From positions 1 through 64,000 of the IMG/VR virus record IMGVR_UViG_3300031994_000044: a stretch of DNA of 64,000 nucleotides. The stretch is one strand, 5' to 3'. Under the pieces are notes generated by a model that saw nothing but the letters and a program-made list of their open reading frames with translations, made no database searches and was not told the origin of the DNA. Source of the stretch: a virus. Its lineage: Duplodnaviria > Caudoviricetes. Positions within the stretch are counted from its first letter, which is position 1. Each line of letters starts with the position of its first letter. The translations under genes and the position numbers were made by a program. Positions 1-36,597 of the stretch are shown here, in pieces.

Positions 1-249
1 ATAAAACCAATCATCATCCAAAATTTTTTCCCCATATAACGCTTCAATAACTTCCTCAATAGTGTATTTTTTTGTTGCGCAAAGAATATAATTGTCGCAT
101 TTCCAAACATCGATATAATCTTTTCCAATCCAACGTTTATTTTTAAATCTTTTCAATGGAACAATTATGTCTCGGTTTATATCTATAATTCTAACAACTG
201 ACAATTCAGTTGTATCGTCAAAACTTTGATATTCAATTATAATTCCCAT
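1..249 (-). CDS. hypothetical protein, partial (runs off window)
   Basis: ATG at 249 (MGIIIEYQSF...); the stretches checked by eye are open and the frame reaches base 1; preceded by AACCAATTAAAA leader and promoter motif 291-306. Confidence 0.6.
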   Translation of the reverse strand, partial: MGIIIEYQSFDDTTELSVVRIIDINRDIIVPLKRFKNKRWIGKDYIDVWKCDNYILCATKKYTIEEVIEALYGEKILDDDWFY

Positions 250-312
250 GTTTTTATAATTTTTAATTGGTTATTTACATTAATCAATATAGCAAAAAAT
301 GTGCCAAAATAT

Positions 313-340
313 AAAAAAGGCGGTACAAAATTGCACCGCC
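313..340 (-). terminator. intrinsic terminator
   Basis: GGCGGTG..TACCGCC hairpin followed by T6 on minus strand. Confidence 0.7.
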
Positions 341-346
341 AATAGT

Positions 347-700
347 TTAGCCCTCCTCCTCTTCGTTGTTAGTAAGACCAAATTCTTCAGCGCAAGCATC
401 CATTTCTTCCCAATAGTCACTGAAACCGACCCAAAGGTTGCCCATTTTGTCAGCAATTTCCTGCATTTGTTCATCGGTAAGTTCGCTTGGGTCAAAACCT
501 TGCGAAATCAAATCCTGCCTTGAAATTGTGGTAGGCACAAATTCATCCAACATTGGAGTTGGCATAAGCAAAAACTCGCCATTGTCATCACTTGAAACGA
601 TAACGCCCTTTTTGTTTTTCAATGTTTCGTAACTCTTTTCAAGAGCGATAGGTGCATTAATGTAGAAGAACTCTTTTCTTTCAATTCTCTTGTAATACAT
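347..700 (-). CDS. hypothetical early protein (acidic)
   Basis: 117-aa ORF with own promoter and leader. Confidence 0.75.
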   Translation of the reverse strand: MYYKRIERKEFFYINAPIALEKSYETLKNKKGVIVSSDDNGEFLLMPTPMLDEFVPTTISRQDLISQGFDPSELTDEQMQEIADKMGNLWVGFSDYWEEMDACAEEFGLTNNEEEEG

Positions 701-761
701 GGTGTGTTTATTTTATTGGTTAAACTTTCAATTTAGTGTCATACAAATATCGTGCCACAAT

Positions 762-1031
762 TTATCTCATAGAGTTACAATCTACAAAATCCCATAATTG
801 CGTTTGAAAATTCGCCTCATTGCCTTTAAAGCAATTGAATTGCCCTATTATGCCGTTCTCATTTGAAACAATTACAATTTCAAGCGCACCATTAAATTGA
901 TAGTCAAGTTGTGCCAATTTGTCACCTCTTGTGCAATCGTTTATTGCCTCTTGTTTGTCCCCATAGATAATAACATCACCATCGGGAAAATGTAGCGGTT
1001 TGCCGTTCTTTTCGACTATAATATAATCCAT
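762..1031 (-). CDS. hypothetical early protein
   Basis: 89-aa ORF in co-oriented cluster. Confidence 0.7.
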   Translation of the reverse strand: MDYIIVEKNGKPLHFPDGDVIIYGDKQEAINDCTRGDKLAQLDYQFNGALEIVIVSNENGIIGQFNCFKGNEANFQTQLWDFVDCNSMR

Positions 1032-1043
1032 GACCTCTATTGT

Positions 1044-1208
1044 TTAATATGGATAATTGCAAAGAATATAAAAGATACTTCCCAACCCAATAAGGGCATC
1101 AATCATAATTAGCCAAAAGTAAATCTTCCTTTGCTGTACATAGTCACATACATAGAGTATTAAACCCAAAATAAAAGTGACCCAAATAATTGCTATTGCC
1201 GTATTCAT
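1044..1208 (-). CDS. small membrane protein (not in ORF track)
   Basis: 54 aa MNTAIAIIWVTFILGLILYV..., two hydrophobic stretches, own promoter 1245-1260. Confidence 0.6.
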   Translation of the reverse strand: MNTAIAIIWVTFILGLILYVCDYVQQRKIYFWLIMIDALIGLGSIFYILCNYPY

Positions 1209-1266
1209 TCTTTTTTGTTTTTAATTGGTTACACTTCAATTATATACAAATTTTGTACCAAACTTG

Positions 1267-1455
1267 TTAAAACAACAAAGAAAAAATTGTAAGCCCTATA
1301 ATTATAAAACAACAAATCAGTTGTTGCTTATCATATTTTTCCACATCTTCTTGGGGTATTCTGTTTTTATTATTGTTACCATAGATAACAATTCCTATAC
1401 AAGCAAATTGATAGGCAAAGACAATAACTGTAATAATTGTTATAATAATGTTCAT
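1267..1455 (-). CDS. small membrane protein
   Basis: 62 aa, two hydrophobic segments, own promoter. Confidence 0.65.
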   Translation of the reverse strand: MNIIITIITVIVFAYQFACIGIVIYGNNNKNRIPQEDVEKYDKQQLICCFIIIGLTIFSLLF

Positions 1456-1518
1456 AATTTTTATTTTTGATTAGTTAATACTTTCATTTCAATAAGACAT
1501 CAAAAAGTGTGCCACAAA

Positions 1519-1821
1519 TTAAAATTTGCCATATTTTTCTTCTATTTTACGATATTTTTCTTCTAAAAATGACATAATTTCATCACAAGCATCATCAAAG
1601 GTTTTCATATTACCAATATATTCATTGAAATAACCGATTGTATCTTTTATATGTCGTATATCATTATCGGGCTCAATACATACAGAAAATAAATGGTCTT
1701 GGTGATTAAGTGCTGCACGATAACCAATACACAACTCGCCAAATGCTGTGACCCATACATTTAAATTATACTCTTCGCCATTGTTAAAAACTGCCTTTGG
1801 TAACTTTTCAATTTTATTCAT
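1519..1821 (-). CDS. hypothetical protein
   Basis: 100-aa ORF. Confidence 0.7.
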   Translation of the reverse strand: MNKIEKLPKAVFNNGEEYNLNVWVTAFGELCIGYRAALNHQDHLFSVCIEPDNDIRHIKDTIGYFNEYIGNMKTFDDACDEIMSFLEEKYRKIEEKYGKF

Positions 1822-1839
1822 AAATAATTGTATTTAATA

Positions 1840-2028
1840 CTACTTTCTTTTATAACAATCAAATGGACATTCCGAGCAAGGATAAGGAACTAATTCAGCA
1901 AATTTTTCCACACCATTGCTATATTTTTTATCAATTATTTCACAATGAGGTTCATATTGTTCTAATGGCAATGGAAAGTCAAGCCAATAATGCTCACAAG
2001 TTTTACAAAGGTCTTTTTCTTTATTCAT
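1840..2028 (-). CDS. small Cys-rich protein (CxxC...CxxC)
   Basis: Start moved to MNKEKDLC at 2028 because promoter lies at 2064-2079. Confidence 0.65.
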   Translation of the reverse strand: MNKEKDLCKTCEHYWLDFPLPLEQYEPHCEIIDKKYSNGVEKFAELVPYPCSECPFDCYKRK

Positions 2029-2084
2029 ATTTATTTGTATTAATCGGTTACGCTTCAATTATATACAAATTCCGTGCCAAACAC

Positions 2085-2504
2085 CTATTCCGCCGCCACA
2101 ATTTTACCTTCAGCAATTTCTCTTTTCAGTGATTCAATGAAGTAGTAAAGGCCATCAGCGTAGGACTGCATTTCATCCCAATCCGTTCTGCTTTCAATCA
2201 AATCTTCGGGATGGTGGCTTTTTGCGCTGCAATAATTCAAATCGTTATCCCAATCGGTTTCTTCCTTTGCAAGCCGTTCAAGGCAGTTTTCAGCCTCGCC
2301 AAAGCACTTGTAGGCATAATTGCGCTCTTTGTACAAACTGAAACTATTTCGGTCATAGTCGCTGAAATATTCCTGCAATGTGACCTTTTGCCCTTTGGTC
2401 TTGATGTAGTTGTCAAAGGCGGCTTCTCTTTCCTTTAATTTTAATTTGCCGTTGCAAATCTCGTTCCACTCTTTTGTGTTATGATAGTATTTGTAGATTT
2501 CCAT
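2085..2504 (-). CDS. hypothetical protein
   Basis: 139 aa, consensus-matching promoter upstream. Confidence 0.75.
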   Translation of the reverse strand: MEIYKYYHNTKEWNEICNGKLKLKEREAAFDNYIKTKGQKVTLQEYFSDYDRNSFSLYKERNYAYKCFGEAENCLERLAKEETDWDNDLNYCSAKSHHPEDLIESRTDWDEMQSYADGLYYFIESLKREIAEGKIVAAE

Positions 2505-2625
2505 TGTTGTATTGTTTTAATGTTCAATTCAAATATAAGCAATAATCGTGCCACAATGTATGTACGCATTTGCGTATATTTAAAAATGGGGATAAAATTT
2601 ACCCCCATTTCTCGGCTCATTGTTT

Positions 2626-3198
2626 CTATTTATATGCATTTTCCCAATCATAAGAACTAATTTGAGAAGGTCTAAAAAACCCATTCAAGCCTTTCATAGC
2701 CTCACCCAATTGTTTTATAGCGTTATTCACCTGCTCGGTGTATTTGTCATAATTATCCCTCGCATCTCCCCATTTTTCCTGTTGCTGTTTGCAAAGGCTT
2801 ATTTCAGTCTCGCATTCTTGGTCTAATTTTTCACTTATAATTCGGTTTTCACCATTCAAAAAATTGTTGCAGTTATATATCATTAAACCATGTAAGTCTT
2901 TGTCAAAATAGACCCAATTTTCCCCAATTTTCACGTCTCTATTTGACGTGTAAATTTTTAATTCTTTGTGACCCATATTATAAGGGTCTGACATATATAC
3001 GCTTGTTGGCATATCCTTACTTTTCAACTCATCGTTTATTGCATTTGAAAAACGAGCATTGAGGACTTTTCCGTCCATTTTTTTACCTACTTTTTGAATG
3101 ACTCTATAAGTCAATATTACTTCATTGTAGGCTGTAATAATAGCATTTGCCAATACCTCAAATCCTTGCTTGTCAAAATTTCTTGCCCTATAGTCCAT
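2626..3198 (-). CDS. hypothetical protein
   Basis: 190 aa, own promoter, terminator-like hairpin at about 2585-2610. Confidence 0.8.
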   Translation of the reverse strand: MDYRARNFDKQGFEVLANAIITAYNEVILTYRVIQKVGKKMDGKVLNARFSNAINDELKSKDMPTSVYMSDPYNMGHKELKIYTSNRDVKIGENWVYFDKDLHGLMIYNCNNFLNGENRIISEKLDQECETEISLCKQQQEKWGDARDNYDKYTEQVNNAIKQLGEAMKGLNGFFRPSQISSYDWENAYK

Positions 3199-3258
3199 AG
3201 TATTTAATTTTTAATTGGTTATTACATTTATATTAGATAGCAAATATTGTGCCAAACT

Positions 3259-3456
3259 TTAGTCATCTTCGAATAATTTTTCCCATTCCTCTTTAAAATT
3301 ACAACCTCTAAAAGGATAATATATATTAAAAATAGGTAACGTTGATAGGAATATCGCCAAAAAAGGTTCAACGTCTCTATATAACATTTTAGAGAGAGTA
3401 AAACAATATGCTATTGCATAAATTACAATTCCAAAAACTATCAATGCGTCTATCAT
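3259..3456 (-). CDS. small membrane protein
   Basis: 65 aa hydrophobic. Confidence 0.65.
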   Translation of the reverse strand: MIDALIVFGIVIYAIAYCFTLSKMLYRDVEPFLAIFLSTLPIFNIYYPFRGCNFKEEWEKLFEDD

Positions 3457-3514
3457 AATTTATATTTTTAATTGGTTAAACTTCACTTTAATTATATGCA
3501 ATAATCGTACCAAA

Positions 3515-3823
3515 TTACCACATTGTCATAATCTTTTCATAGATTTTTTCTGCTGTTGGAACATATCTGTTGATAGATGCTTGCGCCCCATATTTCCAAC
3601 CAAAATCATCACAAGCCTCTTCTTCAACAAAATCAGTGACATAATCCACAATCACATCCATTGTGTGTGAATATGTATCAAAATCATTATCGTAGTTTTC
3701 GGGAAAATCATCTTTACTCCATAAGTTCTCTTTCATGTAATTGAAGATTCTATCAACCAACATATTGAAGTCGTTATCATCAAGATAATTGTCAATAGTG
3801 TGCGCTCCGTGTTTTGTATTCAT
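3515..3823 (-). CDS. hypothetical acidic protein
   Basis: 102 aa, own promoter. Confidence 0.7.
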   Translation of the reverse strand: MNTKHGAHTIDNYLDDNDFNMLVDRIFNYMKENLWSKDDFPENYDNDFDTYSHTMDVIVDYVTDFVEEEACDDFGWKYGAQASINRYVPTAEKIYEKIMTMW

Positions 3824-3873
3824 AGTGCTTACATTTTATATTCAATACAATTATATACAACAATCGTGCCAAA

Positions 3874-4494
3874 CTATTTGCAATTTGCTTTTATTTCGTT
3901 CTCCAATTCGGAAAACATATTGTCAAGTGTGACTTTCCATGTACACTCTCCACAAAGAGGTGCAGCGGTCATCATTTGGTATTCGCCAAACCTATTGCGA
4001 AATAGCCTAAACATTCTATCATATTGACCTTTGTACAATATTACAATAGCATTGTAGCCGCTTGTATTGGTGTCGCATTGTCTTTTGCCGTGTTGAATTT
4101 CAGCCGTGTAGTTAGTTCCTTTCACGGCATTTTGGGCACATTCAAGCAACTTGGGCATAAGTTCTTCAATACTTGGGGTTTCTTCTCTCTCTGCAAGTTC
4201 TTTTTCCCGATTATCAAGCCATGCACTTACACAATCATAAATAAGTTGGTCTTTGCTGCTTGGCTTATACCATTTGAGGTTTTCCTTGTAAAACCATTCT
4301 TTGTAAAGCACTTGCTTATCAATGTCAAAAGAAATTTCAACACTGCCCCAAATATGCACATAATTCGGGTGATAGCCGTTTCTTCTCAATGGCTCAAAAA
4401 ACTTGTAATCTTCTTCCCTCAAATATTGAAGATGATTATCGAAAAGTTTTTCGCATCTTGCATCTAATTCTTCATACATTTCTCTTGCGGTCAT
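3874..4494 (-). CDS. hypothetical protein
   Basis: 206 aa, own promoter. Confidence 0.8.
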   Translation of the reverse strand: MTAREMYEELDARCEKLFDNHLQYLREEDYKFFEPLRRNGYHPNYVHIWGSVEISFDIDKQVLYKEWFYKENLKWYKPSSKDQLIYDCVSAWLDNREKELAEREETPSIEELMPKLLECAQNAVKGTNYTAEIQHGKRQCDTNTSGYNAIVILYKGQYDRMFRLFRNRFGEYQMMTAAPLCGECTWKVTLDNMFSELENEIKANCK

Positions 4495-4563
4495 AGTAGT
4501 ATAATTTTAATTGGTTAATACTTTCACTTCAATAAGACATCAAAAACTATGCCAAAAATTATA

Positions 4564-4833
4564 TTAAACACTACATTTTGAATAAATTTCTATATTATTA
4601 TAATTCTCCACTCTCCTATTGAAATAGGTGGAAAAATAATCTCTCTCTACTTCCCACTTCTCCCATTCATTACTATAATGGGCAATATTGTGGCCAAGCA
4701 TCCAAACCTCCCAACCGCCATCTTCGTTTTGGTCTATATGGAAATAAAGATATTCCTTTGCAAATTCTTTCAAATCATCGGCTTCGTAATATCTAACAAA
4801 TCCCGCAATGTTCATTTTTATTATGTACTTCAT
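4564..4833 (-). CDS. hypothetical protein
   Basis: 89 aa, own promoter. Confidence 0.7.
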   Translation of the reverse strand: MKYIIKMNIAGFVRYYEADDLKEFAKEYLYFHIDQNEDGGWEVWMLGHNIAHYSNEWEKWEVERDYFSTYFNRRVENYNNIEIYSKCSV

Positions 4834-4952
4834 AGTGCTTTGTATTTAGTGTTCACTATAATATAAGCAAAAAGTGTGCCACAATTTATTTTTTAAATTA
4901 AAAAAGAGAAAGAGATTGAGATTTTTCCCAACCTCTTTCTATTTTGGTTATA

Positions 4953-5570
4953 TCACGCATTTGCGTACATATTCTCTTTTTCAATTATTACCACCACGCT
5001 TTCTTTTGCCTCTTCATTCACACAAAATAATTCACCTTGCTTGAAAAATAAGAGGTTTTCTGCTTTGATTTGGAAAGGTTTAATTTGACTTTCGCCATAC
5101 AAACCAACGCTCTCTTGCTTTGCACTACTGCTATGTTCTACATAAGGTTTTATTACCTCAAACTCTTCTTTTGTAAACTTCCGACCATCAATGTGCTTAT
5201 AAATTGTGGTTGCGTTATTGCCTCTCACTTTTTGTAGGCAAAGATAAAATTGAGTTTCATCTTTGTCGGCAACTGCAATAAAATCGTCAATGTGGTGTTT
5301 TCCCACCATACCTGCGACCTCAAAGGTCTGTCCCTCGATGCCGTTTCTTTTAAAAGCCTTATTTATTGAATTGGCGTAATTGACTCCGCCCATACAATTT
5401 ATTACACTTTCTTTGTAACAATCACCATAAAAGGGATTTTTTTTAGGTAATTTTGGCGCGCTCACATAAGATATGCAAAGCATTTCACCCTTTACCACTT
5501 TGCGGAATGAGTTAATGATGTTGTTGATTTGGTTGTCACTGATTTGTTGGTTTCTTGCATTTGTTTTCAT
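4953..5570 (-). CDS. hypothetical phage protein
   Basis: 205 aa, own promoter. Confidence 0.8.
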   Translation of the reverse strand: MKTNARNQQISDNQINNIINSFRKVVKGEMLCISYVSAPKLPKKNPFYGDCYKESVINCMGGVNYANSINKAFKRNGIEGQTFEVAGMVGKHHIDDFIAVADKDETQFYLCLQKVRGNNATTIYKHIDGRKFTKEEFEVIKPYVEHSSSAKQESVGLYGESQIKPFQIKAENLLFFKQGELFCVNEEAKESVVVIIEKENMYANA

Positions 5571-5650
5571 AACTTATAATTTTAATTGGTTTGTTATACT
5601 TGTTACTATACAAATCTTGTGCCGTTTTTTATTTTTTCTCGATTTTTTTT

Positions 5651-5908
5651 TTATTTTATTTCCCATATCCATTTCCACCCATTTGTCGTGTAATCTTCGA
5701 CAAATTCCTCCCTTTTATTTATTGCGGCAACTGACAATTTTATATCTTTACGGCAAAGGTGATACGCATTGCCACCAACATTTTCACGACAAGCAAAACT
5801 AATTATTATATAGGTGTATTTTTCATTTACCCACCCAAATACTTCGTCAAAGTGTTTGAGGTTTATCTTCTTTGCCTTTGCTATTTTTTCCAAAATTGCC
5901 TTATTCAT
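5651..5908 (-). CDS. hypothetical protein
   Basis: Start moved to MNKAILEK at 5908; promoter at 5941-5956. Confidence 0.65.
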   Translation of the reverse strand: MNKAILEKIAKAKKINLKHFDEVFGWVNEKYTYIIISFACRENVGGNAYHLCRKDIKLSVAAINKREEFVEDYTTNGWKWIWEIK

Positions 5909-5980
5909 AATTTTTATCTCTTTGTTCACTACAATAAGAAAGCAAATATTGTGCCAAATTATCCATGACAAACAAAATAA

Positions 5981-6226
5981 TTACCAAGTTTTTTCTTTAT
6001 CAACTGAATAGAATTGTTTGCCCATAATTTCTTCAAGATAACATTTAAAATTAAAATTGCCACGATAATGAAGATGAGCAGCAAATTCACCGACAAATAC
6101 ACTGCAACCGTTTTTATCAGTTACATCACGACCACTTTCGCATATTACATAACTCTTTTCTCTGTGGTAATTAAAAGTCCCCAAAGCCAAAGCGATAGCA
6201 TAATCTTGATTATTTGTAATCTCCAT
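5981..6226 (-). CDS. hypothetical protein
   Basis: 81 aa, own promoter. Confidence 0.7.
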   Translation of the reverse strand: MEITNNQDYAIALALGTFNYHREKSYVICESGRDVTDKNGCSVFVGEFAAHLHYRGNFNFKCYLEEIMGKQFYSVDKEKTW

Positions 6227-6363
6227 ATCTTTATAATTTAATTGGTTAAAACTTTCACTTCAATAAGAATACAAATATCATACCAAACTATTACGTATTT
6301 GCGTACATTTAATAAAAAAAAGCGGAATTTTTCAATCCCGCTTGTTATTGCCGTTGTTGTGGA

Positions 6364-6954
6364 CTATCTTTCAACCCACATAAGATTTTTCACATCGTTA
6401 TTGTGATAGTCACCATCAATATGTATTACCTCATTGAGTTTTATATCGTGTTCACCCATAAAAGCATCCGCCACCATATACTTTACATCGGAGGTTGTGC
6501 GTTTTCCCTCTTTATCGTTGAGGGTAAACTGCATCGCATTTCTTGTTGGCGTATCATAACCGCTTGTAATTTTACATTTCATTACATCGCCACAATCAAT
6601 TATCTTAATTCGCCCTTTATCCGAAACCTCATAGAACATTGAATAATCGACATTGCCGCCGAAGTATCTACCTATATTTTGTATCGGCAACCATTTTTCG
6701 CCTTCAAAAAGAGTTATTTGTTTTGCAACCTCTTGATTATTCAAAAGAACAATTTGCTCGAAATAATCGCTTATCGTCATACCTTTCGGCTTCTTTATTG
6801 CTGTTTTCTTTTTGGGCAAATAAACAATCTTTTTACCCTGTTCTACAAAATCAAGCACATCTACGCCATACTTTGTAGCTATCATTCTCGCTGTTGTTTT
6901 AGCGCTCATTCCCTGCGGAATTACAAAGGTGTCATTTTTCTTAATCATATCCAT
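6364..6954 (-). CDS. NUMOD4/HNH endonuclease-like protein
   Basis: EKWLPI...YEVSDKGRIK (NUMOD4-like) and VIHIDGDYHNNDVKNLMWV (HNH_3-like). Confidence 0.7.
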   Translation of the reverse strand: MDMIKKNDTFVIPQGMSAKTTARMIATKYGVDVLDFVEQGKKIVYLPKKKTAIKKPKGMTISDYFEQIVLLNNQEVAKQITLFEGEKWLPIQNIGRYFGGNVDYSMFYEVSDKGRIKIIDCGDVMKCKITSGYDTPTRNAMQFTLNDKEGKRTTSDVKYMVADAFMGEHDIKLNEVIHIDGDYHNNDVKNLMWVER

Positions 6955-7066
6955 AATTTTTATTGGTTACTTATACTTTTATTTAATCAAAGATTATGCC
7001 AAACTGATTTTTTTAACCTGACAATTTGTCATAAAGAACGTTTTTTTTCGCGACAATTTGTCAGTA

Positions 7067-7453
7067 TCATTTTGTCAGCCTTTTTATTTCATTTGCCAAT
7101 TCTTTACCTTTAATATCTATATCTTTTATGTTTATAACACTATCAGCAACAAACCTAAATTCTTTGCCCATACTATCATTTTTGTGGTCTGCAAAGAACG
7201 ACAAAATCCCAAGATTAGTTTTTACTTCATTCTCATTGCCCAAATCAATAACATATATTGTGTTGTTCTCACTGATAGAATTTGCCCTCAAATAATATAT
7301 ACCATGTCTATCAACAAATATATTAGAGTACACACTGACACGCTCCATTTTAGCAAAACCTTTGCCGCCTCTTTGTTTAGCAATACTAAATACCTGCGCA
7401 CTCATTGTCATTGTAATACCTAAAAACAGCATTGTAAATATAATCTTTTTCAT
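7067..7453 (-). CDS. secreted/periplasmic hypothetical protein
   Basis: Signal peptide MKKIIFTMLFLGITMTMSA/Q, Bacteroidota-style Q after cleavage site. Confidence 0.7.
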   Translation of the reverse strand: MKKIIFTMLFLGITMTMSAQVFSIAKQRGGKGFAKMERVSVYSNIFVDRHGIYYLRANSISENNTIYVIDLGNENEVKTNLGILSFFADHKNDSMGKEFRFVADSVINIKDIDIKGKELANEIKRLTK

Positions 7454-7605
7454 ATCAATTATAATTTTAATCGTTCTCTTATATTTTTCTTCTATACAAA
7501 TATCATTCCGTTTTTAATTAGAATTGATATAAATTACAAAAAAAGATAAAAAAAATGAGGCGTTTTCACAACGCCCCACGTATTAAAAACCTTTACTCTT
7601 TTTAC

Positions 7606-7869
7606 TTATCCATGAATTTTTTTTATTTTTTCATACGAATACATTTGTATTTGGCGGCACACCTTATTATTTATAACAACAAACGTTTTATTTGTTTCCT
7701 CACTGACAAGTTTTGTTGCACAATCACCATACACATCTAACATTGATTTTACCATCTTTTCAATCCTCTCCTTAGCCTCACTTTCAGTGCTACAAGGATG
7801 ATAAATAGGTGCGCTTTCAATTCCGTTGGTGCTTGAACTTGCTGTCACTAAAAAAATTTCTTTTTCCAT
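7606..7869 (-). CDS. hypothetical protein
   Basis: 87 aa, first gene of leftward cluster. Confidence 0.7.
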   Translation of the reverse strand: MEKEIFLVTASSSTNGIESAPIYHPCSTESEAKERIEKMVKSMLDVYGDCATKLVSEETNKTFVVINNKVCRQIQMYSYEKIKKIHG

Positions 7870-7962
7870 ATCTTTATGTTTTTAATTGGTTACACATACC
7901 TTAATCTTATCAAAGACCATACCAAACTGATTTAGATTTTGTCTAAATTATCATTTTTTTTA

Positions 7963-7977
7963 CTGACAATTTGTCAG
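7963..7977. promoter_or_regulatory. palindromic operator/enhancer-like site CTGACA-ATT-TGTCAG
   Basis: Related copies at 7019-7031, 7051-7063, 7985-7998. Confidence 0.5.
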
Positions 7978-8498
7978 ATATTTACGACAAAAATGTCAAA
8001 CTTGATTTAAATGGGTTTTTAAAGCATTAGAAAGACTTTTGTATTAAAATATATGAAGTATTGATTTTAATTTAATCGTGCATTAGGGGGCATATACGGG
8101 GCATATAGGGGACGTTACCCCCCTCTCCCATCCCCATTAAGGGGGTACCCCTTTTTTGGGCGCACAGTTGCTCGCGAAAATTTTTTCCGGAAAATTTAAC
8201 AAAATGTAGGATGAAGGTCCAAAATTAAAATTATCATTACCGTATCTAATTATTATCGATACAATTTCTAATCATTATTAAAATAAAAAAATCTCTATAT
8301 AAGTAACGCAAAAAAATGCGTTTTTCATGAGGGGGGGGTCTTTTTTCCCAAAAGGTACTACTTTTTGAAAAAAATTTTCCATATATAAAATCTATAATTA
8401 AAATCAATGTCTAGATTCAATGTTTGCCATATAGTATTTAGACACTTTGTCCAGATACTTGTCTAGATTCTGGGATAACGGCCCAAAATGAGGCATTT

Positions 8499-8578
8499 TT
8501 CCGTTATGACAACAGAAAAAAGAAGGGCGGCGAAAGATTCGCTGCCCTTATGGAACACGCATTGAATGTGGTTACATT
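8499..8578 (-). repeat. duplicated 3' element with intrinsic terminator (copy 1)
   Basis: About 80 nt highly similar to 11935-12013; hairpin AAGGGCAGCG..CGCCGCCCTT plus T tract. Confidence 0.85.
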
Positions 8579-8608
8579 CGAGGAGATTAGAGTTGTTAAA
8601 TGCTCTGC

Positions 8609-8791
8609 TTAAATATCCTTTGGAAGTTTTTCAATAAAATGTTGCTTCTTAAAGTCTGAAGGGCAATAAGGCCTTCTTTTATTGAAAATCCTAAGAATTT
8701 CGTCATTAGAATTTTCGGTTGGCTTATGAGAAGTTTCAATATTTGAAACTGTATAAAAGCTTGTGTTTTCCATATTATACATTTTATTCAA
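8609..8791 (-). CDS. small hypothetical protein
   Basis: 60-aa ORF between CRISPR cassette and duplicated terminator; true start may be 8772 or 8781. Confidence 0.4.
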   Translation of the reverse strand: MNKMYNMENTSFYTVSNIETSHKPTENSNDEILRIFNKRRPYCPSDFKKQHFIEKLPKDI

Positions 8792-8906
8792 TTATAATTA
8801 TAAATAGGTTATTATACTTATACAGAAAAATTTCTTAATAACCAAATCTTAGTGCCATCATGTATATAATTTCCATAAATTTTACAAATCCCTAATAGTT
8901 TACTGC

Positions 8907-9403
8907 GTTGTAATTACCATTATAAAAAAGATATTCAACAATTGAAACGCTTTCGGAATGCCGTAACTATCGTTGTAATTACCTTTATAAGAAAGGTATT
9001 CAACAATACATCGATACAAGACCTCTACTTCAACAGAGTTGTAATTACCTTTATAAGAAAGGTATTCAACAATACACAACAGAAAAGGAAACGGAAACAA
9101 CACGTTGTAATTACCTTTATAAGAAAGGTATTCAACAATAGGCAATAATAACATACAATTCCAATCAACGTTGTAATTACCTTTATAAGAAAGGTATTCA
9201 ACAATTCAAGACCTATGCTGATGTGTGTACGCTTAGTTGTAATTACCTTTATAAGAAAGGTATTCAACAATAAATGCCGTTCTTGGGGTCTTTTATGTAG
9301 TGTTGTAATTACCTTTATAAGAAAGGTATTCAACAATATCAACTGTAGTCAGGTACATATTATCGACGTTGTAATTACCTTTATAAGAAAGGTATTCAAC
9401 AAT
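8907..9403 (-). CRISPR. CRISPR array, 8 x 36-nt repeats, 7 spacers (29-30 nt)
   Basis: Repeat (minus) ATTGTTGAATACCTTTCTTATAAAGGTAATTACAAC starting at 8907, 8972, 9038, 9104, 9170, 9236, 9302, 9368; the 8907 copy has 3 mismatches (trailer end). Confidence 0.98.
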
Positions 9404-9469
9404 ATGATATTTATAATTTATTAATAAACAAAGTATTATTTAACAATTTTTTATTAAAAAAAGGCATAA

Positions 9470-11764
9470 TTAATCACATATTATTTGATACATATCCTTT
9501 TTTTTGAATATATTAAGTATTGAAGATGGTATTTTCTTTTTAAAAGTATCTTTGATATTATAGAGGGGGTTACCGTATCTATTATTTTCTTTTGTCTTAG
9601 TACACATTGTTAGAAGCAAATCGTTATTTTCGGCTATGTATTTAATATTATTTGCTGCATTAAAGTCAGCATTAAGACCATTTATATGGAATTCTTGTTT
9701 GGTTCTAACTTTGCGTTTGTCTATTAGTTGTAATTGTTTCTTATTATTTTTATCCATGATTTCTTTGACATAGATTTTATGTGTATTGCTATCCATTTGT
9801 GATGTAAAGGCCGCAGGGACAAAAATAACATTCATATTAGTATTATTAGACAATTGCACGAATTTGTCTTTTATGTCAGCAAAACCGATTGCCTTAATAA
9901 CCAGATTCTTAAACCGTTTTTTTTGTATTTCCTTTAAACCATAAACAGAATATGAAATGTCTTTTATGGTTTCGTTTTCATTAAAAATGAAATTATAATA
10001 TTTGGTATTAAAAACTGATTTATCAATTTCTGAATATTTTTTACCTTCAAAGCCATAATATGTCATAAGTGATTTAGCCGTTGGGAATGGTAATCTGTCT
10101 CTTTCAAAATTTGATGAATCAAGGTATTCAAGACCAATAGTATCAAAGCCATTTAGTACAATAACATCATATGCATATTTAATTATATTATCTCTACAGC
10201 CAACAATATCACATTTGACGTTTTCAAGTTTAACTATCAATCCTTTTGCAATATCTGTATTGATAAATGGGTTTTCAAATCTACGAGGGTCCATTGTTTC
10301 TTTTGAATTTGTTGATATATCAGAAAATCCCATTTTGTCATCATATTCATGATTTTTTTCATAGTATTTTTGTTTAAGGATAAAATATGATTTATATTTT
10401 GAACGAAGCATCTTGGTGTAATCAATATATGATGCAATCTTACAATTTTTATCTCTATACTTTTTGGCAAGATTATCAAGAGTTTGGCTAATCGCTATTT
10501 CTCTTTTAAGTAAGGTTTCATCTGTTATTGATACATTATTCTTTTTATCATACTGATTAGAAACACGTTCAAATAGTGATGGAATCTCTAAAAGTCCAAA
10601 AGAAACAAATTTTGCCATTTCAGTATAATAGGCAAGTTCTTCTTTGTTCAAAGTTGAAACAAAGTCTTTATTTTTTAAAAGTTCAACATAGATATTAATA
10701 TAGCCTTTCACTTTCCCGTTATCGGTAATTGAAGTTGCAAGCATTGAATGTTTTGTGTTAATATCAATACCTAATATATTTTTTATTTCTTGCTCTTTTT
10801 TTGAAAAATCTTTTTCGCTTGAGAAAGTAAAGAACAATGTTTTGCCTTTAACTTCAAAAGTTAAATCATATCCATGTTTGGAAGAAATATCTACTAAATC
10901 GACACGGTTTCCATTGTTATCAACCTTAACGGTTTGTCTATTACCCATTAAGTTTATATCATATGGCTTTTTATCTAACACAAGATGAAGAATATAAGAA
11001 GTAAGGCCATGTTTTTTTAATAGCATTTTTTGCATTTGAACAGTCATTGTTTTTCTGTTTCCGTTTCTTCTACAGCCATTGAATGATTTAAGACTTTCGA
11101 CGGCGTGTTTTTCTATTTCTTCATTAATTTCGTTTTTATGTTTAGTGTAATAATCAAATAAGAGTTCTAATCTTTTTATTTTTTCATCATTTGGCGTTTC
11201 ACGATTTTTAAAATAGGTAATTAAATTTTCAAAATCGGTTTCAGATTCAATTTTTTTATTGACAACTTCAAAAATTGTTTGTGTTTTAATTAATTGTTCG
11301 GTTACTGAATTAATGTCTATTTTTGAATATTTAACATTAGGTTTTAAAGTAACAAATTTTGTTCTATAATTACTGATTACATTTTTAACATATCCATTTC
11401 TTCTGAAATATGTATCTCCAAGTCCTAATATATTTTTTCCTTTATATCCATCAGCATTTAAAACTTTAATTGCTTCATACAATGCATTATCAGCATTCTT
11501 TTTTTGTGAAGAATTTAAATTTAATGAAAAAATTTTATATAATGGTAAATCTTTTATATCATCATTTAAGACAAATTTACAATAAACATTTTCTTTATTT
11601 TTAATATAATTTGCCAAATCTCCGATTTTCATTGATGTAAGATTATCACAAATGAAATCGCTGGTTCTATTGTAATAGTTTATGTACTCTTCAATTGCCG
11701 GTTCAAATAAAGACATAATGTCATCAATAGCCACATTCGACTTAAAAACATAAGATTTATTCAT
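9470..11764 (-). CDS. cas12: compact type V CRISPR effector, Cas-lambda-like RuvC nuclease
   Basis: 764 aa adjacent to array; RuvC-I LGIDIN, RuvC-II IGLEYL, RuvC-III NADFNAANNI; PAAFTSQMDS; ATTGTTG...ACAAC repeat resembles Cas-lambda repeats. Confidence 0.88.
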   Translation of the reverse strand: MNKSYVFKSNVAIDDIMSLFEPAIEEYINYYNRTSDFICDNLTSMKIGDLANYIKNKENVYCKFVLNDDIKDLPLYKIFSLNLNSSQKKNADNALYEAIKVLNADGYKGKNILGLGDTYFRRNGYVKNVISNYRTKFVTLKPNVKYSKIDINSVTEQLIKTQTIFEVVNKKIESETDFENLITYFKNRETPNDEKIKRLELLFDYYTKHKNEINEEIEKHAVESLKSFNGCRRNGNRKTMTVQMQKMLLKKHGLTSYILHLVLDKKPYDINLMGNRQTVKVDNNGNRVDLVDISSKHGYDLTFEVKGKTLFFTFSSEKDFSKKEQEIKNILGIDINTKHSMLATSITDNGKVKGYINIYVELLKNKDFVSTLNKEELAYYTEMAKFVSFGLLEIPSLFERVSNQYDKKNNVSITDETLLKREIAISQTLDNLAKKYRDKNCKIASYIDYTKMLRSKYKSYFILKQKYYEKNHEYDDKMGFSDISTNSKETMDPRRFENPFINTDIAKGLIVKLENVKCDIVGCRDNIIKYAYDVIVLNGFDTIGLEYLDSSNFERDRLPFPTAKSLMTYYGFEGKKYSEIDKSVFNTKYYNFIFNENETIKDISYSVYGLKEIQKKRFKNLVIKAIGFADIKDKFVQLSNNTNMNVIFVPAAFTSQMDSNTHKIYVKEIMDKNNKKQLQLIDKRKVRTKQEFHINGLNADFNAANNIKYIAENNDLLLTMCTKTKENNRYGNPLYNIKDTFKKKIPSSILNIFKKKDMYQIICD

Positions 11765-11853
11765 TTTTTTTATTTTAGTTAAATAAAACTTTCTTATTTA
11801 AAATTACAAATTAAATTTTAAAATTCAAAATGTTTTTATTTTAATTTGTACGC

Positions 11854-11869
11854 ATCAAATATTGTGCCA
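11854..11869 (-). promoter_or_regulatory. sigma54-like promoter of cas gene
   Basis: TGGCACAATATTTGAT, same class as early-gene promoters. Confidence 0.7.
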
Positions 11870-11934
11870 AACTTTTAATTAATATACAATTTATTAAGGG
11901 AACTATATACTTGATGGCACAAAAGTAAACATAA

Positions 11935-12013
11935 TTCCGTTACAGCAACAAAAAAAGAAGGGCGGCGAAAGGTTCGCTGCCCTTATGAAACACGCACTTA
12001 ATGTCGTTACATT
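11935..12013 (-). repeat. duplicated 3' element with terminator (copy 2)
   Basis: Matches 8499-8578; directly follows the ATPase stop. Confidence 0.85.
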
Positions 12014-12034
12014 TGACAATGTTAAGCGTGTTGC

Positions 12035-13597
12035 TTAATCATTAAAAAACGCAAGTCTTACTGCATTACTATAAGCCTCTTTGTAGTTTCTTATGTAATC
12101 TTGGGCATCATCATTGTTCCAATAGTCACATTTTTGCATTGCTGATGATTCGCAAGCCAGAAATGCTGCAATACTATATCTATCTTCTTCTGCAAGATTT
12201 TTAAATATCTTTTCATAGAAAGCATGGTCTTGATTGATAAGGACATAGGTTTTTCCGTTCCTTTGTTCAATATCGTACATAAATCCAAACGGACCATCAC
12301 TGATAAATTCAAATCCACCAATCCATTCACCAGTTCTTTTCTTTGTTGGATTAGGATTGTTTTGTGGTTTTGGGTTTGGATTTTTTTGTTTTGGGTTATT
12401 ACACTTTTCGTTCTTACTCTTTTGCTTCATTGTGCCAGCAAGCAAAGTGTTTTTGTTAAGTCTGTCAGCTGTTTGCTCAAGTGACTTTTTCATTTCTTCT
12501 GTCACTTTTTCTTCTTTAGTTTCTTTATGCTGTTTATTGTCTGTTTGTTTGGCCAAAGGTCTAACAATATTTGAAAGCATATCGTAAAAGCCTTGGTCCA
12601 TAGTTGATTTGTCTTTTTCTGTAACCATTTTTGCAAATGTAGTTCCAAAAAATCTGTCAGCGTTTCCATCCATAAATAATTCAAAACGGAAACCGTTTGT
12701 CCAACAACTGCTTTTATAACACATTCCTAAATCAAGACCTTTTCCAACAAGACGATTTTGCCTATAAACATAAATACCAGCCAATTCATTTGACCTACCA
12801 AAATAATCATCAAATGTCGCACTTTGTACATTTTTTGGAATGTACCATGCTTTCCATTCCATTCTGCTTCCGCCATATTCAAAAGCACCGTAGTCCATAA
12901 GTTCAACACCAAGTCCAGATTTGTTGCCAATAGTGTCAAAGAATGTGAGTTTCTTTCCGTTGACATTAAAATTGCAAGTGTTAGACTCAATGTATTTATT
13001 AAACAAAATTCTCATTTGTCTTATCAATGTACCTTCAAAGCTATGATAATCTTTACACGAAATTCTGTCAAGATTTGAAATAATAACTATTGTACCGTGA
13101 TTTGACTTTGTGTTTTCAAAAAAGAAAGAATATTCTTCAGTGTTTTCCGCATAAGACTTAATTCTAACATTAAGTTCACCTTCATCTGAAATATCATCCA
13201 AATCAAGATTTGCAACAAAAAGTTCACCTTCTTCAACTTTTGAATACACAGAAAGATGTGTACCAATTGAAATTGATGCTGTTTTAAGGCCAGCGCCATA
13301 GCATCCAAGATTATAATCCTTGCTTTTTCCTGTTTCAGAGCCAAGAGACATGGCCATCATAAGAGTTTCTTCATCCATTCCACACCCATCATCACAAATC
13401 ATAATTTTACCAACTGTTTTCTTGTCATCTGCTTTGATGAGTTTAATGTAAATGTTCTCAGATTCAACATCTGGCTCAAGAGAATTGTCAACAATGTCGG
13501 CAATTGCTGTGTAATTAGTGTAATTTAATTGTCTAAGAGCATCTTTAATAAAGTTTGCTCTAACTTTAAAAGGAAAATTTTTCTCCATGTTAATCAC
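12035..13597 (-). CDS. GHKL (HATPase_c_3 / MORC-like) ATPase
   Basis: AIADIVDNS, DDGCGM, LGCYGAGLKTAS, HGTIVIISNL motifs; GIYVYRQNRLV S5-like domain. Confidence 0.85.
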   Translation of the reverse strand: MINMEKNFPFKVRANFIKDALRQLNYTNYTAIADIVDNSLEPDVESENIYIKLIKADDKKTVGKIMICDDGCGMDEETLMMAMSLGSETGKSKDYNLGCYGAGLKTASISIGTHLSVYSKVEEGELFVANLDLDDISDEGELNVRIKSYAENTEEYSFFFENTKSNHGTIVIISNLDRISCKDYHSFEGTLIRQMRILFNKYIESNTCNFNVNGKKLTFFDTIGNKSGLGVELMDYGAFEYGGSRMEWKAWYIPKNVQSATFDDYFGRSNELAGIYVYRQNRLVGKGLDLGMCYKSSCWTNGFRFELFMDGNADRFFGTTFAKMVTEKDKSTMDQGFYDMLSNIVRPLAKQTDNKQHKETKEEKVTEEMKKSLEQTADRLNKNTLLAGTMKQKSKNEKCNNPKQKNPNPKPQNNPNPTKKRTGEWIGGFEFISDGPFGFMYDIEQRNGKTYVLINQDHAFYEKIFKNLAEEDRYSIAAFLACESSAMQKCDYWNNDDAQDYIRNYKEAYSNAVRLAFFND

Positions 13598-13736
13598 CCC
13601 TCACTACTTCTATTATTATTAACGCTCTCTAAATGGCATCGTGAAAGGATTTAATATTATTTCCATTCAAAAAGCAAAACTATTTAAATGATTTTTTCTA
13701 AATATACACATTTAATTTGAAAAAAACAAATTATTT

Positions 13737-13894
13737 GTGTCATCATGTATATAATTTCCTAATTTTTTATAAAAAATCCCTAAAGGGATTAGTTATCATT
13801 ACCTTTATAAGAAAAATATTTGTACACAACAAAAATTGTGCCAAACTTTTAATTAATATACAATTTATTAAGGGAACTATATACTTGATGGCAC
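13737..13894 (-). mobile_element. 158-bp internally deleted copy of the CRISPR cassette with a solitary degenerate repeat
   Basis: 13737-13791 resembles 8852-8906; 13792-13820 matches repeat 25/29; 13835-13894 identical to 11861-11920. Confidence 0.85.
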
Positions 13895-13900
13895 GAAATT

Positions 13901-14326
13901 TTAGTCATCAATTATATTTCTATAATTGGGAATTATAACATTTCCTTCGTCATCTTTTACAGGCGTTACTTTTTCACTTAAGTTATTAGTATTCCACGCA
14001 TAAATTGTTGCCATATAATTATTAGGAAAATATTCGTTCTCTGCTTCCATAAATGTTGCTAAACTTTTTCTTTGCGAAGAATTTAATACATCTTTATATT
14101 GGCCATGATGAAAGTATTTATTTGTCTTTAATTCAATACAGGTCTCAAATATTTTTCCCTGCGTACTACTATCTCTTAAATGAAAATGTGGGATATGACA
14201 TGGGTCATCTGTACGGACATATATTTCAAATTCATTCTTTTTACCCATATAGCCAACACGGGCCATTTCATTTAACATCTCTTTTTCTTCCAATACACGC
14301 TTAATTGTCTCGGTTACAATTTCCAT
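13901..14326 (-). CDS. hypothetical protein (HxPHFH motif, DUF4160-like)
   Basis: DDPCHIPHFHL. Confidence 0.65.
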   Translation of the reverse strand: MEIVTETIKRVLEEKEMLNEMARVGYMGKKNEFEIYVRTDDPCHIPHFHLRDSSTQGKIFETCIELKTNKYFHHGQYKDVLNSSQRKSLATFMEAENEYFPNNYMATIYAWNTNNLSEKVTPVKDDEGNVIIPNYRNIIDD

Positions 14327-14614: not shown

Positions 14615-14707
14615 AATCTAAAACATTTATTTAAAAAAATATACAAATTTAAAACAGATAAAACAACTATTTATATAATGATTATAATTTATATTTTATA
14701 AAGTAAA

Positions 14708-19317: not shown

Positions 19318-19415
19318 CTATTAAATTATTTTTTAAAAGTTATTTTTCAATTAATATACAAATACTTTTTATAAAAATCAACATTTACAACTATTTATAG
19401 TAAAATATTTGAGAA

Positions 19416-23632: not shown

Positions 23633-23762
23633 TTATTTTTAATTCTTTTATAAATATACAAAAAATAATTTTCTTAAAAAATCAACGGTTCACAATAGAA
23701 CTTCTCACGGTAAAATCCATGGCTTCATTAGGCAAAGCTTCGTTGATTAAGATTTTTTTCAG

Positions 23763-23844
23763 TACCCCAGGTGGGATTCGAACCCACAATGGCTATGCCA
23801 CCACAGCCTAAATGTGGCCCCTATACCATTTCGGGTACTGAGGC
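23763..23844 (-). tRNA. tRNA-Leu(TAG)
   Basis: CCACA-TT TAG GC-TGTGG, long variable arm. Confidence 0.9.
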
Positions 23845-24930: not shown

Positions 24931-24945
24931 ATTGAAGAATATATG

Positions 24946-25033
24946 CGGAGGGGGTGGGATTCGAACCCACGGGAGTAGTTAGCTCACACAAGATTTCAAG
25001 TCTAGGCCGTTATGACCACTTCGGCACCCCTCC
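24946..25033 (-). tRNA. tRNA-Ser(TGA)
   Basis: CTAGA-CT TGA AA-TCTTG, long variable arm, G73. Confidence 0.9.
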
Positions 25034-25187
25034 AATAGGCTATATGTTTCACAACATACAACCTTATGTTGTTGTTTTATTTTTCAGATTTCACAAGATG
25101 TCAAAGAACATTTGCATTAACAAATATACAAAGTTTTTTGTTAAAAACAAATTTTTTTTTATTTTTTTTTTCGGCAAGTTATCTCTT

Positions 25188-25203
25188 ATCAAAAACCGTG
25201 CCA
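25188..25203 (-). promoter_or_regulatory. sigma54-like promoter in RNA cluster
   Basis: TGGCACGGTTTTTGAT; further copies 26153-26168 and 28031-28046; TATATTTG (Bacteroidota -7 box) at about 25121-25128. Confidence 0.65.
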
Positions 25204-26107: not shown

Positions 26108-26176
26108 ATTCTTTCAAAGAACATAATAAATATACAATTAAAATTTCAAATTATCAAATATTATGCCAAACTTTTT

Positions 26177-26980: not shown

Positions 26981-26999
26981 ATTTTTTAATTATAATTTG

Positions 27000-27071
27000 T
27001 ATGCCAAGAAAGATTTGAACTCTCACTATAACATCCGTAGTGTTATGTGCTATCCGTTACACCATTGGCAC
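27000..27071 (-). tRNA. tRNA-Arg(ACG)
   Basis: TAACA-CT ACG GA-TGTTA. Confidence 0.9.
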
Positions 27072-27080
27072 ATTAATTTG

Positions 27081-27153
27081 TACGCCCGCTGGGACTTGAA
27101 CCCAGGACTCCCACATTAAAAGTGTGGTACTCTACCAACTGAGTTACGAGCGC
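27081..27153 (-). tRNA. tRNA-Lys(TTT)
   Basis: CCACA-CT TTT AA-TGTGG. Confidence 0.93.
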
Positions 27154-27163
27154 ATATTTATTG

Positions 27164-27236
27164 TGGGGAGTGATGGTGCTGACCCATCTTCTTTGGTTTT
27201 TCAGACCAACGCAACAACCGTGTCTGCTAACTCCCC
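27164..27236 (-). tRNA. tRNA-Phe(GAA), atypical T-loop
   Basis: TTGGT-CT GAA AA-ACCAA; T-loop GTCAGCA. Confidence 0.75.
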
Positions 27237-27253
27237 TTAATTGTTATATCAAG

Positions 27254-27327
27254 TCGAGGTGGCGGGACTCGAACCCACGACTTCAGCATCCCAAATGCCG
27301 TGTGCTAGCCAACTGCACCACACCTCG
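27254..27327 (-). tRNA. tRNA-Pro(TGG)
   Basis: CGGCA-TT TGG GA-TGCTG. Confidence 0.92.
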
Positions 27328-27351
27328 TATTATCAAAGAACTATTTATCAG

Positions 27352-27423
27352 AGTCGGCGGAGGGATTTGAACCCACATCGTACTGTTTTGCAGACAGTTA
27401 CCTAACCATTCAGCCACACCGAC
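27352..27423 (-). tRNA. tRNA-Cys(GCA)
   Basis: ACTGT-CT GCA AA-ACAGT, U73. Confidence 0.9.
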
Positions 27424-27430
27424 ATTTTCA

Positions 27431-27506
27431 TCAGTTGGACAGGATTCGAACCTGTGTTTCTTAGCGTCCCGCTTATAGTGTACTAAACCGCTATACGACC
27501 TAACCG
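27431..27506 (-). ncRNA. tRNA-like RNA / pseudo-tRNA, undetermined anticodon
   Basis: Good D and T arms, irregular anticodon arm. Confidence 0.5.
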
Positions 27507-27517
27507 ATGTAATTTTG

Positions 27518-27599
27518 CAAGCAGAACAAGACTCGAACTTGTATCTCACGAATTGGACTCCGTGTGTTTTTCCAAGTGCCTCTTTTAAACTATCTACTC
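27518..27599 (-). ncRNA. tRNA-like RNA / pseudo-tRNA (Trp-like)
   Basis: Perfect T arm, enlarged D loop, non-7-nt loop containing CCA. Confidence 0.5.
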
Positions 27600-27627
27600 T
27601 GTACCGAAGAGCACTCTTCGATATTTG

Positions 27628-27698
27628 CAGGCAGTGAAGGATTCGAACCCTCAACAACGGTTTTGGAGACCGCTATGTTACCATTACACCAACTACCT
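27628..27698 (-). tRNA. tRNA-Trp(CCA)
   Basis: GCGGT-CT CCA AA-ACCGT, G73. Confidence 0.92.
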
Positions 27699-27998: not shown

Positions 27999-28057
27999 GT
28001 ATTTAAATTTTAATTTCTATTTTCACACTTATCAAAAATTGTGCCAAACTTTTCAAA

Positions 28058-36493: not shown

Positions 36494-36597
36494 GAGTCCG
36501 TTTTAACATTATTATTTTCCATAAATAGTCGCTAAAAATAAAAAAAAAACATACATTTCCATGTATGTTTTGAATAATTGTTTTTCATAAGTTTTTT

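Follow-up and report, generated by a model that had tools for sequence, protein, structure and literature searches.

Sigma-54-type promoter cassettes ahead of the presumed early genes of a huge phage, probably read by host RpoN polymerase

Between positions 291 and 7924 of the phage record IMGVR_UViG_3300031994_000044 (Duplodnaviria; Caudoviricetes) lies a block of about 20 small minus-strand genes that is served by 16 copies of a sigma-54 (RpoN)-type promoter. The record (G000 in what follows) comprises 106,307 bp and is estimated to be 29% complete; the window analysed here is its first 64 kb, to which all its coordinates refer. In a scan with the pattern TGGYAY-N5-TTGH (TGGYAYNNNNNTTGH), 22 matches were found in the window versus a mean of 2.1 in its shuffles, in which the maximum was 7 and none of 100 reached 22. 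All 22 matches are on the minus strand, and no antisense or head-to-head site occurs in the window. The block at 291-7924 holds 15 exact copies and one near copy, CGGCAC-N5-TTGT, that was recovered with a one-mismatch scan (5610-5624). A preliminary description of this DNA had counted 17 copies here; the dense series stands, with a corrected count of 16. After each of the 16 sites, a minus-strand open reading frame (ORF) of 54-206 amino acids (aa) starting with ATG comes next, and the distance from the conserved G of TTG to this ATG is 34-47 nucleotides (nt; median 41.5), in agreement with the 30-50 nt or so ahead of consecutive minus-strand genes given in that description. The sites and hairpins of the block are as follows.

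292-306, minus: sigma-54-type promoter TGGCAC-N5-TTGC, with the ATG 44 nt past the -13 G
319-340, minus: terminator-like hairpin directly upstream of the promoter at 306
743-757, minus: sigma-54-type promoter before the 117-aa ORF 347-700
1246-1260, minus: sigma-54-type promoter, TGGTAC variant, before ORFs 1044-1208 and 762-1031
1500-1514, minus: sigma-54-type promoter with TTGA at -12, before ORF 1267-1455
2065-2079, minus: sigma-54-type promoter before the ORFs within 1519-2058
2539-2553, minus: sigma-54-type promoter with the full consensus TGGCACGATTATTGCT, before ORF 2085-2504
3240-3254, minus: sigma-54-type promoter, full consensus match, before ORF 2626-3198
3498-3512, minus: sigma-54-type promoter before ORF 3259-3456
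3857-3871, minus: sigma-54-type promoter before ORF 3515-3823
4540-4554, minus: sigma-54-type promoter before ORF 3874-4494
4867-4881, minus: sigma-54-type promoter before ORF 4564-4833, with a terminator-like hairpin upstream (4907-4940)
5610-5624, minus: variant promoter CGGCAC-N5-TTGT before ORF 4953-5570
5942-5956, minus: sigma-54-type promoter, full consensus match, before an 85-aa ORF
6271-6285, minus: sigma-54-type promoter before ORF 5981-6226, with a terminator-like hairpin upstream (6320-6343)
6987-7001, minus: sigma-54-type promoter before the HNH endonuclease ORF 6364-6954
7555-7579, minus: terminator-like hairpin between ORFs 7606-7869 and 7067-7453 of the head unit
7910-7924, minus: head promoter of the block, before ORFs 7606-7869 and 7067-7453

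Since terminator-like hairpins stand directly upstream of several sites (319-340, 4907-4940 and 6320-6343), many of the early genes look like separate units. Five further copies precede a unit with a cas-like gene and an array of clustered regularly interspaced short palindromic repeats (CRISPR), a solitary repeat and transfer RNA (tRNA) blocks; the preliminary description had likewise placed more copies ahead of the cas gene and the tRNA blocks.

11855-11869, minus: sigma-54-type promoter about 92 nt before the 764-aa cas-like ORF 9470-11764 (CRISPR array at 8901-9403)
13829-13843, minus: sigma-54-type promoter heading a solitary repeat
25189-25203, minus: sigma-54-type promoter heading a tRNA block (tRNA-Ser at 24945-25033 onward)
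26154-26168, minus: sigma-54-type promoter before a tRNA-like sequence
28032-28046, minus: sigma-54-type promoter before a small ORF and the tRNA block 26999-27698

All 16 + 5 sites lie upstream of, and in the same orientation as, a transcription unit. The two other matches of the window look like chance occurrences, one within a tRNA-Leu (23786-23800) and one within a coding region (37619-37633), and the single match in the remaining 42 kb of the record is probably also due to chance.

From the alignment of the 21 sites, it is clear that the motif consists of two conserved blocks 11 nt apart. The GG, the A at -22 and the TTG are invariant, a T stands before the TGG, and the spacing is exact, while the 5-nt spacer is variable. 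The sigma-54 consensus is reportedly TGGCACG-N4-TTGCW (Barrios and co-workers, 1999). The positions left free by the search pattern agree with this consensus too: the base after TGGCAC is A in 13 sites and G in eight, the next base is A in 14 and G in four, and the base after -12 is T in 14 and A in seven. Only the -12 base itself departs clearly from the consensus (A in eight sites, T in seven and C in only six of 21). The hallmark GG at -24 and G at -13, at fixed spacing, was found in all 21 sites. Sequence and geometry thus support a promoter of the sigma-54 -24/-12 type. The RpoN-type signature proposed at the outset is supported at the level of sequence, with a fit that extends beyond the positions searched, and the three copies singled out as full consensus matches (2539-2553, 3240-3254 and 5942-5956) are as described.

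We have also checked two housekeeping readings of the same DNA, and both were rejected. If the element concealed a Bacteroidota housekeeping promoter (-33 TTTG / -7 TAnnTTTG), its spacing would be 14 nt, not ~19, and TAnnTTTG is not enriched upstream of the phage genes (5.8% versus 7.5% in random windows). For a sigma-70 -35/-10 promoter (TTGGTA ... TATAAT), the 11-nt spacer is too short, and a sigma-70-type scan rose only weakly above shuffles. Sigma-70-family factors are not known to recognise two blocks just 11 nt apart.

The promoter core belongs to a cassette of promoter plus leader, about 70 nt long, which runs from AGTT-TGGCAC-N5-TTG through an AT-rich stretch into a short leader. An AACC(A/G)AT box is present in 11 of the 16 leaders, and in 10 of these it starts 21-23 nt before the ATG. 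This box could have a role in translation initiation or serve as the binding site of a regulator. Examples from the window are given below.

260-272, minus: leader box TAACCAATTAAAA
1218-1230, minus: leader box TAACCAATTAAAA
3208-3220, minus: leader box TAACCAATTAAAA
3465-3477, minus: leader box TAACCAATTAAAA
7879-7891, minus: leader box TAACCAATTAAAA

Several features point to a host in the Bacteroidales. A Shine-Dalgarno-like sequence precedes only 6 of 104 phage genes; few such sequences are what is expected for Bacteroidota hosts. There is a ClpB segment match of 61% to an Alistipes metagenome-assembled genome, and a ClpB-based scan for a bacterial host gave only five loci and no firm host. 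Together with the promoter flavour described next, we infer from these features that the host belongs to the Bacteroidales. We have compared the phage promoters with upstream regions of 29 groES and 29 dnaK genes from genomes sampled from the order of the Alistipes genome, which was used as the centre and has an RpoN with the box RRTVAKYR.

The fit between the phage and host promoters is close. TGGCAY was found 72-92 nt before groES in 28 of 29 regions, and 28 of 29 have the G at +13; the -12 element is looser there than in the strict motif (nTG-H), with A in 14, C in nine, T in five and G in one. A strict motif scan finds only 4 of the 29 groES promoters, versus 28 of 29 when anchored on TGGCAY. 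Of the dnaK regions, 27 of 29 have TGGCAY, 26 of them with the G at +13, mostly as TTG, and the -12 base is A in 21, T in four, G in two and never C, so that these promoters are near-uniformly TGGCAY-N5-TTGA. Compared position by position with the 29 groES and 27 dnaK promoters, the phage sites agree in flavour: TGGCA(C/T), R next, TTG, and any of A, T or C at -12. A leader box similar to that of the phage, T(T/C)TAAC...AAAA, is present at -45 to -12 in 14 of the 29 host groES leaders versus a background of 5.5%. In Flavobacterium psychrophilum, a -24/-12 motif (SM4) was described by 5'-end RNA sequencing at groESL, dnaK, grpE-dnaJ, htpG, clpB and lon (PMC9723704).

The comparison also bears on the -12 base, since the preliminary description had suggested that the frequent GT or GA there may relax activator dependence. 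The host dnaK and groES promoters show the same variation, and therefore no relaxed dependence on an activator is needed; this suggestion is further weakened by the TTGC kept in 38 of 44 block sites of the relative G004 and by the candidate enhancers at the head promoters, both described below. TTGA and TTGT are the normal form before Bacteroidales groES and dnaK, a point that is useful for regulon prediction in this order.

Using the combined promoter-plus-leader pattern, we have retrieved eight related huge-phage contigs (G001-G008). G001, of 361 kb, is estimated to be 100% complete, and G003 is nearly identical to it. Of 93 proteins of G000, 62 are common with G002 (64% identity), 53 with G001 and 25 with G004. 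The motif counts in G001 to G005 are 37, 64, 32, 82 and 46, versus 2-14 in reversed-pattern controls. As in the window, the sites are grouped: about 19-22 good ones lie on one strand at 132.8-152.3 kb of G001, 43 at 15-37 kb of G002 and 44 at 30-58 kb of G004, which has about 30 more of the form TGGCACGGTTTTTGT across 65-183 kb, a number of them ahead of tRNAs. At -12, C is found in 38 of the 44 G004 block sites and in 13 of 19 G001 sites; in G002 and G000 this base is mixed. At a protein identity of 45-64%, the relatives have kept the core but not the flanks; judged from these comparisons, the promoter core is conserved while the genes behind it turn over. The clade is possibly related to the Jug phages of Bacteroides and Phocaeicola (360-402 kb), whose description has no mention of sigma factors or promoters (PMC12880540). 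A search for DNA similarity to deposited phage genomes gave no match.

We have also searched for phage proteins that would read the promoters. Neither Sigma54_DBD nor Sigma54_CBD gave a match at E<=1 in the record and five relatives, and when the RpoN of a Bacteroidales genome was run with phmmer --max on every open frame of four phage genomes, the complete one among them, the best E was 0.3. No RNA polymerase beta subunit or T7-type RNA polymerase was found in the eight relatives. Matches to PF00158 (Sigma54_activat) over the cut-off were considered as activators and rejected, since those scanned against Pfam are two-domain ClpB/Hsp100 homologues; the weaker matches are short. The GAFTGA loop is lacking in the phage proteins searched, save for a GSFTGA in G002, which was likewise discarded as an activator loop since it sits in a lectin-like protein. 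The genome search for rpoN or enhancer-binding protein genes that had been proposed as a check thus came back empty for the record and the relatives searched. The earlier proposal of a host or phage sigma-54 accordingly leans towards its first half: with genes for sigma-54, an enhancer-binding ATPase or an RNA polymerase not found in the record or the eight relatives, the host RpoN is the likely reader.

In addition to the core promoters, we have checked the flanking DNA for enhancers. The palindrome TGACA-N3-TGTCA occurs twice in G000 versus 0.13 expected, at 7019 and 7964, the first 18 nt and the second 40 nt ahead of a head promoter (7001 and 7924, respectively). With up to two mismatches, CTGACA-N3-TGTCAG gives four sites in the 64 kb, three of which are the following.

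7018-7064, strand not assigned: two palindromic units, CTGACAATTTGTCAT and GCGACAATTTGTCAG (7018-7032 and 7050-7064), 18-60 nt upstream of the promoter at 7001; candidate upstream activating sequence
7963-7977, strand not assigned: perfect palindrome CTGACAATTTGTCAG, 40 nt upstream of the head promoter at 7924; candidate upstream activating sequence

G001 has nine TGACA-N3-TGTCA palindromes versus 0.35 expected, eight of them inside the early block and with a cluster directly upstream of the head promoter, and G003 has the same set. On the host side, 24 of 29 groES promoters have TGTCAG/CTGACA in the 200 nt ahead of them, frequently as tandem copies and with three TGACA-N3-TGTCA palindromes among them; it also lies upstream of 16 of 27 dnaK promoters. 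These repeats upstream of the host chaperone genes are likely the binding site of the regulon's activator. The phage palindromes resemble the repeats before host groES and are suggestive of a host activator site, although not generally across the clade. Candidate enhancers at the head promoters would argue for activator dependence, not away from it.

Taken together, these observations make it probable that the sites are sigma-54 (RpoN)-type promoter cassettes, repeated along the presumed first-expressed block and placed before the tRNA and cas/CRISPR units, and that they are read by the host RpoN polymerase. The start sites, the RpoN dependence, the activator, the timing and the exact host are what we infer from the DNA, as are the labels 'early' and 'lytic'. 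Several points weigh against reading by host RpoN and its activator. With a record that is 29% complete, the absence of rpoN and enhancer-binding protein genes leans on the relatives, and a very divergent phage factor would escape both Pfam and phmmer. No enhancer is recognisable in the short intergenic space ahead of most promoters; activation would then call for either a single site shared by many promoters or an activator working from solution. The palindrome is found only once or twice in each of G005-G008, and in neither G002, the closest relative, nor G004. The AGTT extension before TGG differs from the host groES consensus at -3 and -4.

A rival reader would be a phage factor of an unrecognised kind, either a divergent sigma-54-like protein or a specificity factor delivered with the virion, that has converged on the -24/-12 geometry and leaves the host RpoN uninvolved. 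In its favour, no family could be detected for most proteins of the early block, transcription factors of their own are common in huge phages, and the cassette is extended in ways specific to the phage, by the AGTT before the core and by conservation around the predicted start. We nevertheless consider such a factor unlikely: the Sigma54 domain and host RpoN searches gave no hit in four phage genomes, the complete one included, the position-by-position match to the host chaperone promoters would be left unexplained, and the 11-nt separation of the blocks is not one for sigma-70-family factors. It is also quite unlikely that the host RpoN works here without any activator, with the closed complex opening by itself owing to a non-C base at -12 and an AT-rich stretch from -10 to -1. 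The mixed -12 base of the phage sites (A8/T7/C6), the conserved AT-rich region past TTG and the lack of a recognisable enhancer at most promoters would fit this explanation; however, the -12 variation is shared by host dnaK and groES and is not a relaxation specific to the phage, TTGC is kept at most G004 and G001 sites, and groES-like palindromes stand at the head promoters. We know of no natural sigma-54 promoter that is independent of an activator.

Two further explanations give the sites another main role. The sites could form a sponge or roadblock that titrates the host sigma-54 holoenzyme off its stress regulon rather than act mainly as promoters. Sigma-54 closed complexes are stable, and each genome offers tens of high-affinity sites, the number of which grows with replication. 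A sponge, however, needs no particular placement, whereas the sites here all point the same way as a gene whose ATG follows after 34-47 nt, the window lacks antisense or head-to-head sites, and the motif also heads tRNA and cas units; we regard this explanation as improbable. The remaining one, that the element is some other copied regulatory cassette, for example the operator of a phage repressor, and only resembles sigma-54 promoters by coincidence, appears to us very improbable. The cassette is indeed longer than a sigma-54 core promoter and has a conserved leader. Yet about 11 specified positions fit the sigma-54 consensus at the exact spacing, the invariant ones (GG, TTG) are those that sigma-54 contacts while the spacer varies, and it is the core that persists in the relatives, not the flanks.

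The cassettes can also be compared with known systems. The Bacteroidota chaperone promoters are the closest match, with the same TGGCA(C/T) core, R next, T-rich spacer end, TTG and variable -12 base (A/T/C), upstream TGTCAG/CTGACA repeats including TGACA-N3-TGTCA, and the T(T/C)TAAC...AAAA leader box in about half of the host groES genes. They differ in that each small gene of the phage has a copy to itself, 16 of them within 8 kb and most without a recognisable enhancer of their own; that the distance from the -13 G to ATG is 34-47 nt in the phage versus ~60-80 nt in the host; and that the phage genes downstream are of unknown function, tRNAs or cas, not chaperones. With the classical sigma-54 promoters (glnAp2, nifH, pspA), the phage sites share the two blocks and the exact spacing, including the three full matches, but the -12 C is not conserved, no enhancer-binding protein gene was found in the phage clade, and they serve as the general promoter of a gene block, not of one regulated operon.

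Among phages, the passage of PMC10914365 that cites Ceyssens et al. 2008 gives Pseudomonas phage YuA a single sigma-54-like promoter. YuA is alike in having a phage promoter region assigned to the host sigma-54, but there it is one region in a temperate-like siphovirus, whereas here there are about 20 units and up to ~80 in relatives. The cassette organisation itself has a counterpart elsewhere. T4-type phages are said to carry promoter-early-stem-loop modules (Arbiol and colleagues, 2010). Their small early genes likewise have a strong promoter each, often with a hairpin terminator just upstream, and the cassettes are copied along the block; the T4 ones are sigma-70 promoters, however, and need no activator. 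The use that the preliminary description had called unusual is described on such a scale in no phage paper that we could find. Both the promoter type and, presumably, the host machinery are known; their use as the promoter of a phage early block was not found in published descriptions.

The following course of events appears most likely. Host core polymerase with host RpoN would bind the cassettes, and a host enhancer-binding ATPase, most plausibly the controller of the chaperone regulon, would open them, acting from the palindromes where these are present and elsewhere by looping or from solution. The transcripts would have leaders of about 21-34 nt, and about half of them would resemble host groES leaders. 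The sigma-70-family factors of the phage would then take over the later genes. In this way the start-up programme of the phage would plug into the host sigma-54 chaperone regulon.

More tentatively, and at somewhat less than an even chance in our judgement, a clade of ~360-kb Bacteroidota phages may have adopted the host sigma-54 chaperone-type promoter as its general early promoter, with promoter, leader and, in some lineages, enhancer palindromes copied from the host regulon. Start-up, tRNA supply and CRISPR-Cas would then be gated by a host enhancer-binding protein for folding or envelope stress, set off by the infection itself or by host stress, and phage and host stress response would be rivals for sigma-54.

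Textbook phages start on strong promoters for the housekeeping sigma factor or with a polymerase of their own that enters with them. In the present case, infection would by default begin through the enhancer-dependent sigma-54, which is unable to open DNA without an ATP-driven activator. If true, this would tie the expression of phage genes to a regulator that senses host stress, in a concrete and testable way and in a phylum, the Bacteroidota, in which transcription is little studied. It would also explain how these huge phages do without their own polymerase, and the early regions of uncultured phage genomes could be recognised by a simple signature in their sequence. It also predicts that host rpoN or activator mutants resist infection.

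As for the later genes, one or two sigma-70-family genes are present per phage in the record and its relatives. In G001 and G003, a 292-aa gene of this family is the last of the block, 46 nt behind a sigma-54-type site, and therefore fits a cascade. The factor in the window likely reads a later promoter class, for which there are two candidate motifs. CTATTTAT occurs 19 times versus 7.3 expected in G000, typically 25-45 nt before middle or late genes and often just past a terminator hairpin, and recalls T4 late promoters. TTTGTATATT occurs seven times versus 1.1 expected. Its copy at 25123-25132 reads TATATTTG, which is the Bacteroidota housekeeping -7 box, and lies in tandem downstream of the sigma-54-type site 25189-25203, before the tRNA block. 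Both motifs, ahead of later genes, are probably read by the sigma-70-family factors of the phage.

44425-45129, minus: phage sigma-70-family factor with regions 2 and 4, candidate reader of a later promoter class
14667-14674, 19391-19398 and 48923-48930, plus: CTATTTAT (further copies lie beyond the window in G000)
36521-36528, 41131-41138, 42689-42696 and 52756-52763, minus: CTATTTAT
14638-14647, 19353-19362, 23653-23662, 25123-25132, 47946-47955 and 48354-48363, minus: TTTGTATATT
50850-50859, plus: TTTGTATATT

ClpB/Hsp100-type chaperones are encoded by relatives (177909-181364 in G001; in G002 the gene is split into two ORFs). As clpB is a member of the sigma-54 chaperone regulon in F. psychrophilum, the phage may bring a disaggregase of its own and at the same time use the promoter type of that regulon.

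Among the early-block proteins, no PHROG family was found except for one HNH endonuclease, and positions 1-14000 gave no match to Rfam families. The 764-aa ORF (9470-11764, minus) adjoins the array at 8901-9403, which has eight 36-nt repeats (GTTGTAATTACCTTTATAAGAAAGGTATTCAACAAT) with a period of 65-66 nt. This ORF has no Pfam match at E<=0.01; a compact Cas protein of the single-effector kind is a possibility. Upstream of the promoters at 11869 and 13843, the adjoining 40 nt (11870-11909 and 13844-13883) are identical, so that the cas cassette is flanked by a duplicated promoter region. A GC-rich island at ~8061-8180, a short way upstream of where the early block is headed, contains repeated GTATATGCCCC units and a GGGGTACCCC-type hairpin, and could be a genome-end, packaging or origin element; a like element is present at the head of the G002 block (~37.4-37.6 kb).

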